Of a stretch of DNA of 64,000 nt, positions 1,571 through 24,816 are shown in pieces (position 1 is the stretch's first letter; the number at the start of each line of letters is the position of its first letter). The stretch spans positions 92,277-156,276 of IMG/VR virus record IMGVR_UViG_3300032288_004702. One strand, written 5' to 3'. Under the pieces are notes generated by a model. It was not told the DNA's origin and did no database searches. It saw only the letters and a list, made by a program, of their open reading frames with translations. Both the position numbers and the translations under genes were made by a program. This stretch comes from a virus.

Positions 1571-2065
1571 TTATTTTTGGGCAATCTTTTTTGACGGGGG
1601 GTCTGGTACAGCGTACTTATCTCCCTCGAGCTGGGAGACAATCTTTTCGTACATCGAGCAGAATGCTGCCCTGTCTGCATTGGTGTGGAGGTTATAGGCA
1701 GACTGGCCCATTGCCTGAACGGTTTTAGAGAGTGCCTCTGATACCTCTATGGACGGAGGCATACCAGAGTTGACCTCCTGGGATAGGGTAATCCATTTAC
1801 CCCAAGCAATAAGGGGGTCATCGAATGGGGGTATTTTTGTGGTGTTATCAATTGTGGCTTTTCTGAGCTCACCTGGTCGGGGCATAAAGTCTCGAGTTAC
1901 TGCCATATTGCGGAAAGAGCGCTTGACATCTGCGAGCTCGAGGTCGTGCAGGAGCTCGTACCATGCATTGAGGAGAGCCTGAACCTCTTCGTCCTTTGTG
2001 GGCATCTCTAGGCGGTAGGTGGCATAGGCCTGGTCTACTAGCTCTACCAGCTCTGACTTGTTCAT
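1571..2065 (-). CDS. Replicative helicase loader/inhibitor-like protein (G39P-like N-terminus)
   Basis: AWYELLHDL..VKRSF....DFMPRPGELRK resembles the G39P-type motif. Confidence 0.5.
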   Translation of the reverse strand: MNKSELVELVDQAYATYRLEMPTKDEEVQALLNAWYELLHDLELADVKRSFRNMAVTRDFMPRPGELRKATIDNTTKIPPFDDPLIAWGKWITLSQEVNSGMPPSIEVSEALSKTVQAMGQSAYNLHTNADRAAFCSMYEKIVSQLEGDKYAVPDPPSKKIAQK

Positions 2066-2436
2066 TCGTTTGCCCAGTTAGATTTAGCTGATTTATTGCC
2101 GGCGTCGTACAGCTCCTGGAACTTCTCTACATGAGCTGCATCTCGGAATATGACGGATATGTCATTGTAGGCAGTCTTCTGTTTGTTCTTCCCCATATGG
2201 AAGTCTGACAGTGCACAGCCGGCGATGGCCTCTTTGCAGCCCTCGACGTTGTATACGGCGATTGCCCATCTGAGGTCTCTCTCGCGCTTGATGTCGAGCT
2301 GGGCGCGCTTCTTGCCCATTGTGTGCTTCCAGTATTCGAAGACTTCCAGCACCAGAGGGAAAGCTACTTTCTTTCCAATCTCTACTTTGTTCTTATTGTG
2401 GGCATTTGGCCCACGCCCCTTCTTTTCAGTACTCAT
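2062..2436 (-). CDS. Phage replication-initiator-like protein
   Basis: EVFEYWK..AIAGC..SDFHMG.N....YNDISVIFR; coupled to the helicase-loader-like gene; TTGACG-N18-TAGATT promoter upstream. Confidence 0.4.
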   Translation of the reverse strand: MSTEKKGRGPNAHNKNKVEIGKKVAFPLVLEVFEYWKHTMGKKRAQLDIKRERDLRWAIAVYNVEGCKEAIAGCALSDFHMGKNKQKTAYNDISVIFRDAAHVEKFQELYDAGNKSAKSNWANE

Positions 2437-2888
2437 CTTGTCCAATCTAGTTGAAGTCTTCCGCCACCGTCAAACAAATTCGGGAAAATCTGATTTTGGA
2501 CAGACTTCACCTTAAGTCCCTTTGTCACTTTGGTAGGAGATTTAACTCTCGTTATTTCCGTGAATGGAATCTATTGCCGCTTGGCCAGTAAAGATACTTT
2601 GGAGGGGGGTTCGGGGGGAACCTTTACAAATGTTTTGCAAAAGGGCAACCCGAAAAACACCTCCCCTCGAAGGTGTCGAAAAATTCTGTAGGCGTGACGC
2701 TGGCCGGCGTCTGGAAATTTCCAATTTCGCTCTATCGAGCTAGATGGTCGATGACGATAGCAGGCTCTTCCACCACCGTCAACCACTACCCGGGGATTTT
2801 TTATTTTTCTCCACGGCCGCCGGGCCGGCGCGGAAAAATCTGACAAAACTTGCAAGCACGACTAATTACATCGTGGTAAGTTAGCGGG

Positions 2889-2985
2889 GCTTCTTACGGG
2901 TTCCCCCTTTCGCCCGGAAAGAAGTAGCCCCCGGGTTGAGTTCGTTGATGGGTTGGTAGGTGGCCGTCTTCGACTCCCCGGGGGC
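2889..2985 (+). ncRNA. Candidate two-hairpin small RNA with loops antisense to array-gene leaders
   Basis: Extended -10 TGGTAAGTT at 2874-2882; two long stems whose G-U pairs only work on +; loops TTCCCCCTTTCG and GTTGGTAGGTGG. Confidence 0.6.
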
Positions 2986-2998
2986 ACCTTCGCTTTAT

Positions 2999-3415
2999 CT
3001 ACTCTCCACCCCAGTAGTCTTTGTTCTTTTTCTTGCTGCTGTGCCGCGGGAGGAATTTTGATGATGCTGCTTCCTGCTGCAGCTGCGCCTGCCGCTGAGC
3101 TGCACGTGGGTCTGAGAGTTTGGCAAGAATTTCCTTGGTCTCGCCATCGAGGCCGCCACCGACAGTCTTCGAGTAATTCGACGGGTGCTCCATCCGGTTG
3201 CGTGCTTTTTCTTTTATTTCCTCTTCGAGAAGAAATTGCTGCAGCTCTAGCTCGAGCAGGGTTTGTGCGTTTTTTTCGATATTCCGCGGATTCGTCAGTG
3301 TCCGGTATTTAAATCTATCCAGGTACCTGCCGGCGACGCCGGCCATGGCAGCAATAAAAACGATAATTGTTGCAACTGCTGCCGCGGTGAGAATCATTGA
3401 GATAAATGTGTTCAT
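2999..3415 (-). CDS. Hypothetical protein with N-terminal TM helix
   Basis: ORF with AAGGA RBS and hydrophobic N-terminus; stop lies in the GAGTAGATAA motif. Confidence 0.6.
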   Translation of the reverse strand: MNTFISMILTAAAVATIIVFIAAMAGVAGRYLDRFKYRTLTNPRNIEKNAQTLLELELQQFLLEEEIKEKARNRMEHPSNYSKTVGGGLDGETKEILAKLSDPRAAQRQAQLQQEAASSKFLPRHSSKKKNKDYWGGE

Positions 3416-3688
3416 GATTGTTTTTTCCTTTGTTCAAATTTATTGATTATTTCTTCCAGACGGCCGTCGTTTACTCGAGGGACCAGCCAGAAAAAGAACC
3501 AGAAGACCATGGCCATGTATGAGAAAAATGCAATTTTCATTCGCCGACCTCGTCGAGGTATGAGTCCCTAAGACCATCGCAATAATCCTGATATTGCGCT
3601 TTTATCTCGGCCTCACGTAGAAGATGGTCATCCCGACGGCTTTCCTCAAAAGCCAGGAATTCTGCATTGATGTTTTCAGGGCCCATGG

Positions 3689-3961
3689 TTACCTGCCGGC
3701 GGCCAGAAGTTCTTCGTGTTTTTCCACAGTTTCTAGATACGTGTCGACTACACGTATGAAAGTCGCAGAGAAAACCATCCGTGTAGCCATCGACATATCG
3801 TCGATTTTTTCGAATATTCCCCCCATGACAAGAAGCTTCTGTCTAACCGCATCCAGATTTTCTGCACGCTCTTCAGGAGCATAGGGATTACCAGTTATCT
3901 CGTCATAGAGAATTGCATCTTGCAACTTTTCGGCGAGGAGCTCTGAGTTAAAGTTTTCCAT
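3689..3961 (-). CDS. Hypothetical protein
   Basis: Tightly packed - strand ORF. Confidence 0.55.
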   Translation of the reverse strand: MENFNSELLAEKLQDAILYDEITGNPYAPEERAENLDAVRQKLLVMGGIFEKIDDMSMATRMVFSATFIRVVDTYLETVEKHEELLAAGR

Positions 3962-7760: not shown

Positions 7761-9329
7761 CTACTCCCTCTCGGGGAGCGGTGTCCCCATGTGCTGATAG
7801 TAGATGTTTCGGAACATGTACGGATACACGCTCTGTGCTTTGCCGTTCACTTTGAGGTTGCGCAACTGCTCAATGGCTTCCTCAATGTGGGGAACCACGA
7901 TGTAGCGGTGCTGTCGTGCGTAGGTAATGCACTGCATGGCAAGCAGGTCGGAGAATCCGTCATTTGCTCCACACACTCCACCGTCTGTGACCCACACAAG
8001 CGGAGTGTTCTTGTATTGACGATTCTGAACGCCCCACTCAATAGCGGGGAAGTCCACGCCGTTGCCGTGTCCGTAGTCAATGTATTCCACATTCTCCACC
8101 ATGCGTCCCTTGTCTGCAACGACCCATGCGTTCGCACGGTCGCCAGTACCACGACCACGGTCGGAGTAGATGAGGACAGTAGCCCCAGGAGCGTTCTCAA
8201 TGATTTCTGCGATTTGCTCCGTAGTGAACGACATGGAACCGCTTGCGTCAATGATGACCATGCCACCACTGCCACGCACCGTCTTGTCAAAGACACGCTT
8301 TGCAGGGTCGGTCATGTAGCGGTGCATGCGCCGTGGGCGAATACCGACATTCGTGGCGATTCGCTTCTTGCCCATTGAGCCGTAGTGGTAGCGAGGCAAC
8401 GGTTCACGACTGACGACAAGTTCTGCCCACCGTGTCGCTCCACCGTGTTCTGCTGGTGTCACCTTGCCGTGTGGGTTTCCGTCCCTGTCGCCGTCCTTGC
8501 TTTCGCCTTCCTCGTACTCGGCAGAGTGTTCCTCTTGCTCGTCACCCGATTCGGACTTATCTACTCCCTTTGCGCCAGCCTTGCCAGCCTTCCCCTTCTT
8601 GGGGTCGTTCTTGCGAGACTTCGGCGGTGGGAATGAGGCGAGCCTGTCCACCCACTCTGCCATGCGCTCGGTGTGAATGAATCCGTATGGAGCGACACCC
8701 TCGTAGGTGTCGGTGCTTGCGAGTGTGCGTGTCTGATGAGCCTTGCGCATTTCCTTCACTGCTCGCTTGCCAATGTCCACAAGTGCGTCACCCCATGCTC
8801 GGTTGTGCCTGCGGATTCCGTTGAGGAATGGCTTGTGTCCAGCCGTGTTCGCCGTGGCGATACACATGGCAACTGCGCCTGCCCAGTCTCCCGACTGTGC
8901 AAGTTTCTCGCCTGTGGCGAGTTCGCTTCCGTCAGAGAGGTGCGTCTTGACATCAAAGCCAGCCTGCTGACAGAGGTAGTTCACTCGCAGTTCCTCAACG
9001 ACTGTCATGGCAGTCTCGGACGCAACAGAGCGACCGACAAAGACTTCCATTTGTTCGGTGGTCGGAGACACCTTCGCATGCATCATTTCGTGCGCACGAA
9101 CGACACGCTCCATTTCACCGTCCACGGACGGAGCGAACATGACACGGTGAGTGACATCAGTGCGAGGCTCGCCACGCACTGCACGGCAGTCCTCAACAGT
9201 CCAACGCTCATGGGCGAGGTCTTTACGACCAAGCATGTTCGGTTCAGGGCGGTGCGCCCCCTTCTCAGACTTATCTACCTGAGAAGGGAACGCCTTGCCC
9301 CTGCTGTTCTGTGCAGGAGAGAACGACAT
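7761..9329 (-). CDS. vWA-domain protein with N-terminal HExxH metallopeptidase-like domain (DUF2201-like)
   Basis: RAHEMMH; MIDAS IIDASGSM; GNGVDF; VWVTDG; adjacent to MoxR ATPase. Confidence 0.8.
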   Translation of the reverse strand: MSFSPAQNSRGKAFPSQVDKSEKGAHRPEPNMLGRKDLAHERWTVEDCRAVRGEPRTDVTHRVMFAPSVDGEMERVVRAHEMMHAKVSPTTEQMEVFVGRSVASETAMTVVEELRVNYLCQQAGFDVKTHLSDGSELATGEKLAQSGDWAGAVAMCIATANTAGHKPFLNGIRRHNRAWGDALVDIGKRAVKEMRKAHQTRTLASTDTYEGVAPYGFIHTERMAEWVDRLASFPPPKSRKNDPKKGKAGKAGAKGVDKSESGDEQEEHSAEYEEGESKDGDRDGNPHGKVTPAEHGGATRWAELVVSREPLPRYHYGSMGKKRIATNVGIRPRRMHRYMTDPAKRVFDKTVRGSGGMVIIDASGSMSFTTEQIAEIIENAPGATVLIYSDRGRGTGDRANAWVVADKGRMVENVEYIDYGHGNGVDFPAIEWGVQNRQYKNTPLVWVTDGGVCGANDGFSDLLAMQCITYARQHRYIVVPHIEEAIEQLRNLKVNGKAQSVYPYMFRNIYYQHMGTPLPERE

Positions 9330-9331
9330 GA

Positions 9332-10057
9332 CTACTTCACTCCGTCCACTGCGAGAGCGTCAAGAATCTGCTTGGCACGGTTGCCGAATGTCAGTTGGCA
9401 GGCTCGCTCCATTCCGACCGACTTGCGCAACTTGTCCAGTGCCATGAAAGCACGGAGAGAGATACGAGCCTCGCCACCGTCAGCCATGCGAACGGCATAG
9501 CCACGCAGGTCGGGAGACAAGCGGAGAAGTGCGTTCGGGTGCGGTTCGTTGATTCGGATACGAATGGGGAAACGGTCTGCGAGAGCCGTGGGCAGTTCGC
9601 TCATGTTCTCAATGTTCGTGGTCATCACGGCAGAGAATCCGTCAAGAGGGCGAACAGTCTCGCCAGTCTCGGGGTGCTGGAAGGAAGCCGATTCGGGAGA
9701 ATCCAGCATGGCGAGGAGTGTTGCGAACACATCGCCACCTGCCTTATCTACTTCGTCCACGATGAGGCGACCGCCCTTCGTGCCGTTGCCCTTCCATGCT
9801 TTGAGAGCCGAGCCGTCAAGCCACTGGAAGCCACCGTTCGCTGACGGCATGAAACCGCCCGTGACATCCATGTTGGTCATGTCCTCTGTGCAGACGAGGC
9901 GGTATGCGCCAGCCTCGGTGTCTCCGAACGACAGACCTGCGTAGGTCTTGCCAGTTCCAGCAGGACCGAACAGAATGATTCGGTCAATGCCTGCGTCAAG
10001 TGCGTCCTTGACATCTTGCCAGCACTGCGGAAGTGCTGTCTCTTGGGTGGTGTCCAT
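9332..10057 (-). CDS. MoxR/CbbQ-type AAA+ ATPase
   Basis: Walker A GPAGTGKT, Walker B LIVDEVD, TTN sensor, ALADRF arginine finger. Confidence 0.85.
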   Translation of the reverse strand: MDTTQETALPQCWQDVKDALDAGIDRIILFGPAGTGKTYAGLSFGDTEAGAYRLVCTEDMTNMDVTGGFMPSANGGFQWLDGSALKAWKGNGTKGGRLIVDEVDKAGGDVFATLLAMLDSPESASFQHPETGETVRPLDGFSAVMTTNIENMSELPTALADRFPIRIRINEPHPNALLRLSPDLRGYAVRMADGGEARISLRAFMALDKLRKSVGMERACQLTFGNRAKQILDALAVDGVK

Positions 10058-10866: not shown

Positions 10867-11168
10867 AACATTTCTCCTATTCCGACTTATCTACTACTCC
10901 CCCGCGTGACACTATCACCACTCGGACAGGCTTCCCAAAGTTGCAAACAAAAACTGAGAATCTGCAAAAAAGAGAAAAATCCTGCTGCCAGTAAGCCCTA
11001 GGGCTTGCCTTCCGCCACCGTCATTCGGATTTATTTGATAAATCTCCGCCGCCAGCTCGAGCGTCCTTCTGCGAAAAAATCAAAAAATCGTCAGAGATTT
11101 AGACAACCAAGAAACCAATACCGCGTTTCAGCGGGGCTCCACCCCAGGGAAACGGACCGATGAAGAAA

Positions 11169-11206
11169 GGGGAGTGCTACCGCCCAACCGAACGGCAACA
11201 CTCCCC
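11169..11206 (-). terminator. Intrinsic terminator
   Basis: GGGGAGTGTTGCCG-loop-CGGTAGCACTCCCC followed by TTTCTT on - strand. Confidence 0.6.
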
Positions 11207-11234
11207 GAGTAGATAAGTGAAAGGGGGGACTTAT

Positions 11235-11444
11235 CTACTCTGACCCGATGACCTCAAAGCGGTCGCCCGCTTCCTCTACAAGCCCGAGCCCGCTTCCGCT
11301 ATCCCACTGGACGAACACTGTTCCCCAGTCGTCTACGAAATCCACGGTTCCTTCCTCTCCTGCTTTCAGGAGCGTGTAGGGGTCGGAGCAGTAAATGAGT
11401 CTGACTCTCTGCCCGACTAGGTGTTCGTTTCTTGCCCGTCTCAT
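11235..11444 (-). CDS. DUF4314-like protein
   Basis: GQRVRLI..SDPY..L..GEEGTV.FVDDWGT..V.WDSGSGLGL....DRF. Confidence 0.75.
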   Translation of the reverse strand: MRRARNEHLVGQRVRLIYCSDPYTLLKAGEEGTVDFVDDWGTVFVQWDSGSGLGLVEEAGDRFEVIGSE

Positions 11445-12290: not shown

Positions 12291-12410
12291 TGGTTGCCCC
12301 TTTCAGGCGGTGTGGTTGGTACTGGAAGCATACCATGTCAGGTACAGACTTCCCAAAGTTATCTACTGACAGTAGGGGTCGGTACAAGCCCCTACACGCC
12401 AGCATGATTC

Positions 12411-18769: not shown

Positions 18770-19116
18770 GTTGTTCCCCTTTCGGAATGGTTGGTAGGAC
18801 ACCGTCAGCGTACCACGCTGGGGACAGGCTTCCCAAACTTATCTACTCGGTTCTTCCACCACCGTCATTCATTTGAGAGAGTGGGCAGAGACAGCCCTTG
18901 GGAAATCCCGACTTATCTACCACGCCCCCGTGTGGTGGCTCGCCCCAGCCCCAGCCCCCGTTCGGGGTCGGAGCCCCGGCGTCTCCAAGCGAAGCGGGGC
19001 TCCTGCCCCAACTTTGGGTCAGACGAACAGGTGTTCGGTCTGTGGGGTCGGGGACTTATCTACTCCCCCAATGGAAAGGGGGGCAGGGGGAGTAGATAAG
19101 ACCCGAACGCCTAGCC

Positions 19117-19859: not shown

Positions 19860-19946
19860 TGTTGTCCCTTTCGTTTCGGTTGGTAGTGGACACCAGAACT
19901 GTACCACGCACGGCACAGGCTTCCCAACTTCGCAAGATGTGGAGAG

Positions 19947-22567: not shown

Positions 22568-22745
22568 GGTGTCCCCTTTCGTTGGTACGCCCAAACTGTA
22601 CCACGCACGGGACAGGCTTCCGTGAGTTATCTACTCTGCTTGTGGGTCGTTCGGCGGTCGGAGTTATCTACTCCGTCAGGTGGGGGCTGGGGCTGTGTCA
22701 GGGCGTGGGGCTGTGCCGTAGGGCGGTCGCCGTCAGGCGCACGAC

Positions 22746-24743: not shown

Positions 24744-24816
24744 TGGTGTTTCCCCTTTCGGGCAGGTGGCTCCTGCCCACCAGAAATGTACCACTAAGAG
24801 GACAGGCTTCCGAAAG

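Follow-up and report, generated by a model that had tools for sequence, protein, structure and literature searches.

A putative small RNA family of large phages and the complementarity of its loops to a set of accessory-gene leaders

The locus and the predicted RNA

The window analyzed here, 64,000 nucleotides in length, is the final 64 kb of IMG/VR virus record IMGVR_UViG_3300032288_004702, a 156,276-bp record with direct terminal repeats, and our subject is a candidate small RNA gene that lies near the start of the window, beside the gene for a replication initiator. The locus sits in a 553-bp gap (2446 to 2998) that is bounded on both sides by minus-strand genes and has stop codons in all three minus-strand frames. 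An earlier reading of this DNA, made from the sequence alone, had described an extended -10 element followed by two hairpins with defined loops, and all of these features were found where the sequence-only reading had placed them. Folding of the plus strand, a check which that reading had proposed, gave exactly hairpins 1 and 2, with a free energy of -53.1 kcal/mol (z -2.5), compared with -43.3 kcal/mol (z -1.3) for the minus strand. The features of the element and the two genes that flank it are as follows.

2874 to 2882, plus strand: extended -10 element of the small RNA, TGGTAAGTT, read in the sequence
2889 to 2925, plus strand: hairpin 1, with outer stem CTTCTT/AAGAAG and inner stem CGGG/CCCG, from folding and from pair changes in homologs
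2901 to 2912, plus strand: loop 1 (TTCCCCCTTTCG), C-rich and resembling the 16S anti-Shine-Dalgarno sequence, its core CCCnTTnC present in 15 of 15 family members
2927 to 2985, plus strand: hairpin 2, a probable terminator hairpin, from folding, family-invariant motifs and a compensatory change
2952 to 2963, plus strand: loop 2 (GTTGGTAGGTGG), G-rich, its core G.AGGTG present in 15 of 15 members
2986 to 2998, plus strand: 3' tail with a weak U-tract (CGCTTTAT), touching the stop codon of the convergent gene
2062 to 2445, minus strand: replication-initiator gene with an O-like C-terminal domain (phrog_16167, E 7e-15), divergent from the RNA gene
2999 to 3415, minus strand: convergent upstream gene, function unknown, which ends 1 nt past the RNA tail (stop codon 2999 to 3001)

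Loop 1 is complementary to CGAAAGGGGGAA and loop 2 to CCACCTACCAAC. Within hairpin 2, the invariant segment CCGGGTTGAG (2931 to 2940) pairs with CTCCCC (2974 to 2979), and the resulting helix has a UU bulge that is conserved. The spacing from the -10 element predicts a transcript start near 2889, and the 3' end of the RNA would lie at or just after hairpin 2.

Conservation, strand and genomic address of the RNA family

Homologs were assembled by three routes and comprise 15 distinct sequences from at least 25 IMG/VR contigs. Protein-anchored searches led to three related large phages, and DNA-pattern scans led to L009 and to the more divergent L015/L021 lineage; a search of IMG/VR with conserved stem-base strings, in which the loops were left free, yielded 10 more distinct sequences (L089, L112, L103, L075, L106, L128, L136, L173, L180/L182 and L178). 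Scanning of metagenomes for the pattern recovered the L015 sequence twice and a single chance match (L026), with no new variant.

Among the close relatives, conservation across the full 553 bp of the gap exceeds that of the neighboring gene (57 to 62% protein identity), both loops are invariant, and hairpin 2 carries a compensatory change from G-C to A-T. At a greater distance, in L015/L021, the stems of both hairpins have been largely replaced and the loops are identical. All 15 distinct homologs folded into two hairpins of the same design, whose loops hold the conserved motifs, and the invariant columns of their alignment are CCCnTTnC in loop 1, CCGGGTTGAG, G.AGGTG in loop 2 and CTCCCC. MAFFT misaligns the variable stems, and the pair tables were set in register from the loops on single-sequence folds; counted outward from the loops in this way, helix positions mostly show three to five standard pair types each. 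Covariation in related phages had been named in advance as a check on the element, and across the 15 homologs the stems do covary about constant loops.

A covariance model built from the alignment (R1) recognized 19 of 19 family copies at 49 to 100 bits, with one copy per genome and the next match at 20 bits. The window scores 100 bits (E 2e-23) and shows the family pattern in full, namely, a hairpin with a CCCnTTnC loop followed by CCGGGTTGAG, the G.AGGTG loop and CTCCCC within ~100 nt. Comparison of the whole window with Rfam 15 at gathering thresholds returned tRNAs only; the region from 2800 to 3060, compared at E values up to 10, gave chance matches of 9 to 17 bits, and six homologous loci at E values up to 1 gave a single tRNA. 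A blastn search of the gap against cultured phages produced no match, and model R1 matched neither Actinomycetia phage DSL-LC01 nor Microbacterium phage Zooman. We regard a real, structured phage RNA family, carried by many phage contigs, new to Rfam and apparently uncatalogued, as well supported by these comparative data. In group F, the RNA is succeeded by CGGGGCT and another copy of the motif CCCCTTTCTCTCC (L180, ~9290 to 9335, on the minus strand of this locus), which may represent a tandem partial copy or a different C-rich element. An acceptor-type pairing GGGGCU/AGCUCC, as in transfer-messenger RNA or tRNA-Ala, was considered and rejected: the covariation supports a local hairpin 2, and in groups E and F the position of CGGGGCT with respect to the RNA is shifted.

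Several lines of evidence point to the plus strand as the transcribed one. The minimum free energy is lower for the plus strand in 13 of the 15 homologs, and plus-strand folds contain 62 G-U pairs versus 24, which bears out the earlier argument that such pairs favor this strand. In the closer relatives the advantage amounts to 9 to 14 kcal/mol, with a stronger z-score, in all five sequences compared, and RNAalifold gave -39.0 with 34 pairs, 12 of them with double changes, for the plus strand and -29.7 with 28 pairs for the minus strand. U-rich tails follow hairpin 2 directly on the plus strand in L075, L103, L106, L136 and L178, and these are clear U-tracts in L075, L103, L106 and L178. Upstream, TGGTAnnTT stands at a fixed distance from hairpin 1 in the close relatives and varies only at its two middle positions; across the family, the -10 element is conserved at fixed spacing and TGn is present in 11 of 15 members, and the promoters of distant members read either TGnTAAnTT or TTGCAC-17/18-TAATGT/TAAGGT (the latter in L173 and L180). 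A promoter of its own, the mark of a stand-alone small RNA gene, is thus predicted from a conserved sequence pattern. On these grounds, a plus-strand RNA is, in our judgment, very probably made from the locus.

The RNA gene stands between opposite-strand genes in every locus inspected (13 loci). Its promoter-side neighbor is the divergent phrog_16167 initiator gene in the window and in six of six distant members tested; the 3'-side neighbor varies, and the type found in the window at 2999 to 3415 is not conserved in distant members. The RNA ends 0 to 44 nt before the stop codon of the upstream gene (~15 to 44 nt in L081, L103, L128 and L178), with no coding overlap. A tblastn search with the initiator protein found only distant proteobacterial phages.

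This address recalls bacteriophage lambda, in which a short transcript opposes the early operon just upstream of gene O and the promoter activity of pO/oop, not the RNA, modulates replication (PMC3985674). By the same logic, the element could be an oop-like cis element of the replication module, a short transcript and its promoter firing against the minus-strand operon and, through polymerase collision or antisense pairing, limiting the read-through that reaches the replication genes or the origin, as has been suggested for lambda pO/oop. The divergent and convergent layout beside the initiator in the window and the six distant members, the unfailing opposite orientation of the flanking genes and the conservation of the 553-bp gap beyond that of its neighbors are all compatible with this explanation, but a purely cis-acting mechanism needs no invariant loops across distant phages, and the initiator has promoters of its own downstream of the element. 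The likeness to lambda OOP is one of position only, in that a short transcript runs against an early operon directly upstream of an O-like initiator: OOP is perfectly antisense in cis to the 3' coding end of cII, whereas the RNA described here ends at ~2998, ahead of the stop codon at 2999 to 3001, overlaps no coding sequence, has conserved loops and shares no sequence or model similarity with OOP. Gene order is widely shared among the relatives; the synteny may therefore be a matter of simple inheritance, and linkage alone is no proof of a role in replication. We consider the oop-like explanation unlikely.

Distinctly less probable, in our estimation, is a replication element proper, that is, an RNA primer, an origin-activating transcript or a DNA hairpin or cruciform of an origin located in the gap upstream of the initiator. 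The linkage to the initiator gene and to the helicase-loader-like gene that comes after it fits such an element, as does the high conservation of a gap that is free of open reading frames and contains further hairpins. Against this, the G-U pattern and the presence of terminators on the plus strand only favor an RNA over DNA hairpins, no iterons were seen in the gap (four two-copy repeats only), and conserved loops resembling an anti-Shine-Dalgarno sequence would be unexpected in a primer.

The remainder of the gap and its surroundings contain other features. The initiator gene is probably leaderless; a minus-strand promoter (TTGACG-18-TAGATT, 2444 to 2473) places its ATG 7 nt past the -10 hexamer, and the -35 is provided by the motif TGACGGTGGYGGAAGA, which is found again at 2766 to 2785 and upstream of several cassettes of the gene array described below. 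The idea that the gap represents a lost N-terminal domain of the initiator was rejected on account of the stop codons in all three minus-strand frames. A second small RNA candidate occupies 2646 to 2782 on the minus strand, with a promoter TTGACG-17-TATCGT (2782 to 2754) and, after ~100 nt, a canonical terminator composed of CACCTTCGAGGGGAGGTG and TTTTT (2676 to 2650); its fold has an energy of -32.7 kcal/mol (z -2.1), and it is kept in the close relatives. A C6-GAA-C6 tract (GGTTCCCCCCGAACCCCCC) lies at 2603 to 2622 on the minus strand, and the 9-mer GGTTCCCCC is common to the tract and the flank of RNA loop 1. On the other side of the RNA gene, within the minus-strand gene block downstream of it, are two terminator-like plus-strand hairpins with T-tracts (3578 to 3598 and 3789 to 3805), which could halt antisense read-through from the RNA promoter. 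The gene at 2999 to 3415 had no family match in the protein-family comparison. An actinobacterial host is suggested by the leaderless genes, by the extended -10 promoters and by weak links at the protein level with an Actinomycetia phage and with Microbacterium phages; a scan of bacterial genomes gave only chance matches among the matches listed, and no prophage or host was found there.

Complementarity between the loops and the cassette leaders

The candidate targets belong to an array at 10 to 37 kb of the window that contains 20 to 21 short genes or gene groups, here called cassettes, of which 16 are on the minus strand and 5 on the plus strand; some are leaderless, and the array encodes a variety of accessory proteins, AAA_5, DUF3846, DUF6011 and DUF1281_C proteins among them. 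The cassette promoters form one class, GGAAGyCTGTCC-N6-TGGTACnnT, usually preceded by a GTAGATAA box and followed by a short leader. The promoter of the small RNA is without the cassette-type upstream element, and the RNA is therefore probably controlled differently from the cassettes. In the leaders, the ribosome-binding site (RBS) motif CGAAAGGGG lies 4 to 8 nt before the ATG; this motif has 10 copies in the window versus 0.65 expected, and eight of the nine copies outside the element are at ribosome-binding positions. The exact string CYACCAACC occurs eight times in the window. Loop 1 of the RNA is complementary to the RBS motif CGAAAGGGG, and loop 2 is complementary to the CTACCAACC box.

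The GTAGATAA box is present in 115 copies between positions 1 and 39100 of the window (44 plus, 71 minus), with none beyond 39.1 kb; there are ~100 copies in G002 and only 15 in G001, which uses a variant box. The cassette promoter differs by lineage, with GGTGTAGGTAA in place of the box in G001 and a fused form, GGTAGATAAGTCTGAACC-N6-TGGTACnnT, in G002, and the cassettes of G009 carry GCAAATCCTTAC-N10-GACAGxRG before the ATG instead. The cassette region is GC-rich (56 to 61% in 2-kb windows at ~14 to 38 kb versus 47 to 50% elsewhere). Two minus-strand hairpins within it (11164 to 11252 and ~19050 to 19110) have arms formed by inverted GTAGATAA boxes and loops (CCCCCCTTTC) that resemble an anti-Shine-Dalgarno sequence; next to the first, on its 3' side, come a perfect 17-bp hairpin and TTTCTT, and this first element folds at -61.5 (z -6.1) and gives a weak match to R1 (20 bits, E 0.011). 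Both could be extra anti-RBS loops in the 3' untranslated regions (UTRs) of cassettes.

Complementarity was evaluated in the genome of the window by counting contiguous Watson-Crick matches in 21 cassette leaders and in 212 other gene upstream regions. At least 8 nt complementary to loop 1 were found in 11 of the 21 leaders compared with 8 of the 212 controls; for loop 2, matches of at least 7 nt (7 to 10 nt, at the 5' end of the leader) were present in 10 of 21 versus 4 of 212, and matches of at least 8 nt were present in 5 of 21 versus none of 212. Both sites occur in the right order in 5 leaders and in 1 control. Loop 1 is perfectly complementary over 9 nt to eight RBSs in the window, and the leaders often extend the match by a preceding C and a following AAC, which pair with the flanks of loop 1 and not with 16S rRNA. 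Duplex energies separate the cassette leaders from other genes (p ~6e-5 per loop). When real loops were compared with permuted loops in the window's genome (G0), loop 1 surpassed 100% and loop 2 surpassed 98% of the permutations (96 to 100% over the tests run), and in a cross-genome ranking of 35 ortholog groups, seven of the top eight were cassette-region genes. The strongest candidate target leaders in the window are listed here.

18770 to 18806, minus strand: best candidate target leader, complementary to loop 2 over 10 nt (5' end) and to loop 1 over 9 nt (RBS)
19860 to 19897, minus strand: candidate target leader, 9 nt to loop 2 and 8 nt to loop 1
12291 to 12326, minus strand: candidate target leader, 8 nt to loop 2 and 8 nt to loop 1
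24744 to 24784, minus strand: candidate target leader, first by duplex energy, complementary to loop 2 over 7 nt and to loop 1 over 9 nt
22568 to 22594, minus strand: candidate target leader, complementary to loop 2 over 7 nt and to loop 1 over 9 nt

The sequence-only reading had proposed that the two loops are antisense, in antiparallel order, to the leaders of about 19 genes. The antisense relationship is real, and the expected enrichment was obtained, since cassette leaders are far more complementary to the loops than are the upstream regions of other genes of the same phage and the real loops outperform permuted ones, but complementarity is strong at both sites in only five leaders. That reading had also cautioned that GAAAGG is a common RBS, so that specificity would rest on loop 2. 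In three complete genomes, GAAAGG-type RBSs are present in 15 of 21, 17 of 23 and 12 of 18 cassette leaders but in only 7 of 212, 4 of 204 and 6 of 199 other genes, which mostly use AGGAG/GGAGG; as the GAAAGG-type sites are nearly confined to cassette leaders, the concern about the usual RBS of the host is largely answered.

The cassette genes are mostly on the minus strand, with the consequence that the minus strand of the element itself reads like a leader, with the box and then the RBS motif in leader order and no start codon after them; that the plus-strand loops are antisense to the leaders is an automatic result of this arrangement. The likeness of the minus strand to a leader underlies another explanation, in which the minus strand is the functional one, as a leader look-alike that acts as a decoy for a leader-binding factor or for the 30S subunit, as a decayed cassette copy or as a 3' UTR terminator of the gene at 2999 to 3415. 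Transcription from that upstream gene probably continues through the element, and there is weak collinear similarity (E 0.49) to the cassette at 18789 to 18848. However, the minus strand folds worse in 13 of 15 homologs and has C-A mismatches where the plus strand has G-U pairs, the conserved -10 element and the U-tracts are both on the plus strand, the minus strand has no cassette promoter, and stems that covary over 15 lineages would not be found in a relic. A decoy for a leader-binding protein, which the sequence-only reading had offered as its alternative, is accordingly unlikely, and we judge a functional minus strand in any of these forms to be very improbable. The decayed-copy version had been prompted by the blastn match and by a GTAGATAA box at 3002; it was dropped because the element is a conserved, covarying RNA, and the box, one of 115 copies in the window, is not diagnostic.

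A number of observations weigh against the proposal that the RNA controls the cassette leaders as a regulon. The cassette leaders are alike, probably by shared ancestry, so that the enrichment counts are not independent, and a reversed loop 2 was also enriched, so that part of the signal reflects G-rich versus CA-rich composition. In a permutation test performed per genome, with leaders defined solely by their RBS, the real loop 2 was better than its permutations in G0 (0.04), G1 (0.013) and G8 (0.000) but not in G2 (0.25), G6 (0.31) or G7 (0.21). The loop 2 box is not strictly kept in orthologous leaders, and the cassette leaders of G9 (group F) carry an unrelated motif (GCAAATCC...GACAGxRG) and mostly canonical RBSs, although the RNA and nearly the same loops are retained there. 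The strict linkage of the RNA to a replication gene leaves room for another role, and hairpin 2 in the window is not a canonical terminator, having in place of a proper U-tract only CGCTTTAT, 6 nt past the stem. The distant group E offers some support, in that its leaders have a CCACCTAC-type box upstream of GAAAGGGG that matches the core of their own loop 2; this box differs somewhat (CCTACTAC) and fits only the 6- to 8-nt core of loop 2, and a perfect CCACCTAC is present in one leader. Evidence that loop 2 and the leader boxes change together from lineage to lineage is suggestive in group E and absent in G2, G6, G7 and G9. Cofolding of the RNA with the leaders (RNA.cofold) gave no signal (p 0.16); this result was disregarded because the method forbids loop-to-strand, pseudoknot-type contacts and is unsuitable for the purpose. 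Given the cross-genome permutations and the findings for group E and G9, pairing of loop 1 with G-rich RBSs appears to be a robust, family-wide possibility, whereas the contact of loop 2 with an upstream box looks lineage specific and limited to a minority of leaders.

The same results raise the prospect that the plus-strand RNA is real and that its loops recognize some other partner, either host mRNAs with G-rich RBSs, as is the case for C-rich-loop small RNAs of Gram-positive bacteria, or a protein that the RNA would scaffold or sequester like a sponge. Lineages with differing cassette leaders have the same loop cores and bulged helix without variation, the specificity of loop 2 for leaders is weak in several genomes, the UU-bulged GGG-UU-GAG/CUC-CCC helix is a candidate protein site, and 6C small RNA sets a precedent for C-rich loops (PMC6486639). 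The genomic context, in contrast, points to no protein partner, and the best predicted sites in the window's own genome are overwhelmingly cassette leaders; we attach only a small probability to this alternative.

A possible regulatory role and its precedents

With somewhat less than even confidence, and from sequence comparison, we tentatively read the element as a stand-alone small RNA of ~100 to 110 nt (~2889 to 2998, plus strand) that pairs with cassette leaders and regulates them. In this scheme, the RNA would be transcribed from the extended -10 element at 2874 to 2882, with its 3' end at hairpin 2 or immediately past it. Loop 1, the anti-Shine-Dalgarno look-alike, would pair over 9 to 12 nt with the cassette RBS, (C)GAAAGGGG(AAC), better than does 16S rRNA, and such pairing in trans would block 30S binding and hence initiation; this would be the main contact on ~8 to 11 leaders. 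Loop 2 would make a second contact at the CA-rich, CTACCAACC-type box at the extreme 5' end, adding affinity on ~5 to 10 of the leaders. The sequence features, the conservation of the family, its covariation, strand asymmetry and synteny, and the enriched complementarity are observed; transcription and the ends of the transcript, base pairing inside the cell, and the sense and timing of any regulation are inferred, and a global shut-off of early genes by the RNA is purely speculative. A more ambitious version, which we hold to be doubtful, would make the RNA a trans-acting reader of a start-associated leader code, clamping the 5' end and the RBS of ~10 to 15 separately promoted cassette mRNAs and linking the start of replication to a phage-wide switch in the translation of accessory or early genes; the RNA would then be the first cognate RNA for motifs like the start-associated sequences (SAS) of actinobacteriophage-type genomes.

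Two kinds of regulatory RNA provide partial parallels. The C4 RNA of P1/P7 reportedly uses two short segments that pair with two sites around an RBS and so block translation (an account attributed to Citron and Schuster, 1990). Like C4 (RF01695), which is ~80 to 100 nt in length, the RNA described here is phage encoded and would present two exposed segments to two sites around an RBS, with two-site complementarity of this type found at the sequence level for five leaders. It differs in having no match to RF01695, even at E values up to 10, and in its own promoter, its replication-gene neighbor and its many dispersed candidate targets; C4 is cut from the transcript that it regulates and has one target operon. 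The role of this antisense RNA in the control of ant has been described (PMC8201110). The chaperone-independent 6C small RNA pairs through a C-rich hairpin loop with the G-rich RBS regions of several mRNAs (PMC6486639). A C-rich loop complementary to G-rich RBSs is common to our RNA, to 6C/B11 (RF01066, Actinobacteria) and to RsaE/RoxS, but 6C is chromosomal and has two hairpins, each with a loop of at least six C residues, whereas the RNA here is phage borne, has one C-rich and one G-rich loop and has no Rfam match. By analogy, then, the two-site C4 RNA and C-rich-loop small RNAs such as 6C come nearest to the proposed mechanism, and the element belongs to neither family.

On the target side, the closest analog is found in the SAS/ESAS of cluster K mycobacteriophages, a repeated, oriented motif at the RBS position of nonstructural genes that follow long intergenic gaps; SAS are conserved beyond what pairing with 16S rRNA would account for, one orphan copy lies away from gene starts, and the authors left open whether an RNA or a protein binds them (PMC3203893). 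Their function was still open in 2025 (PMC12699233). The likeness to the leaders described here is one of layout only: SAS is a 13-bp sequence (GGGATAGGAGCCC) 3 to 7 bp before the start codon, whereas these leaders combine CGAAAGGGG, 4 to 8 nt before the ATG, with a CA-rich box, and each motif has its own promoter. We know of no cognate RNA reported for SAS.

Few phage-encoded regulatory RNAs are known, and none, to our knowledge, has been described in large phages with apparently actinobacterial-type features such as leaderless genes and extended -10 promoters. The present family is well delimited, with a clear structure, conserved loops, a fixed genomic address and a testable set of targets in the same genome. 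Even if its targets prove to be others, the family merits a curated RNA model, and its linkage to the initiator calls for explanation. Should the loops indeed pair with the leaders, this would account for the unusual RBS common to a block of genes that each have their own promoter, a site with a poorer fit to 16S rRNA than to the RNA, and the start-associated sequences of mycobacteriophages, so far unexplained, would gain a model.

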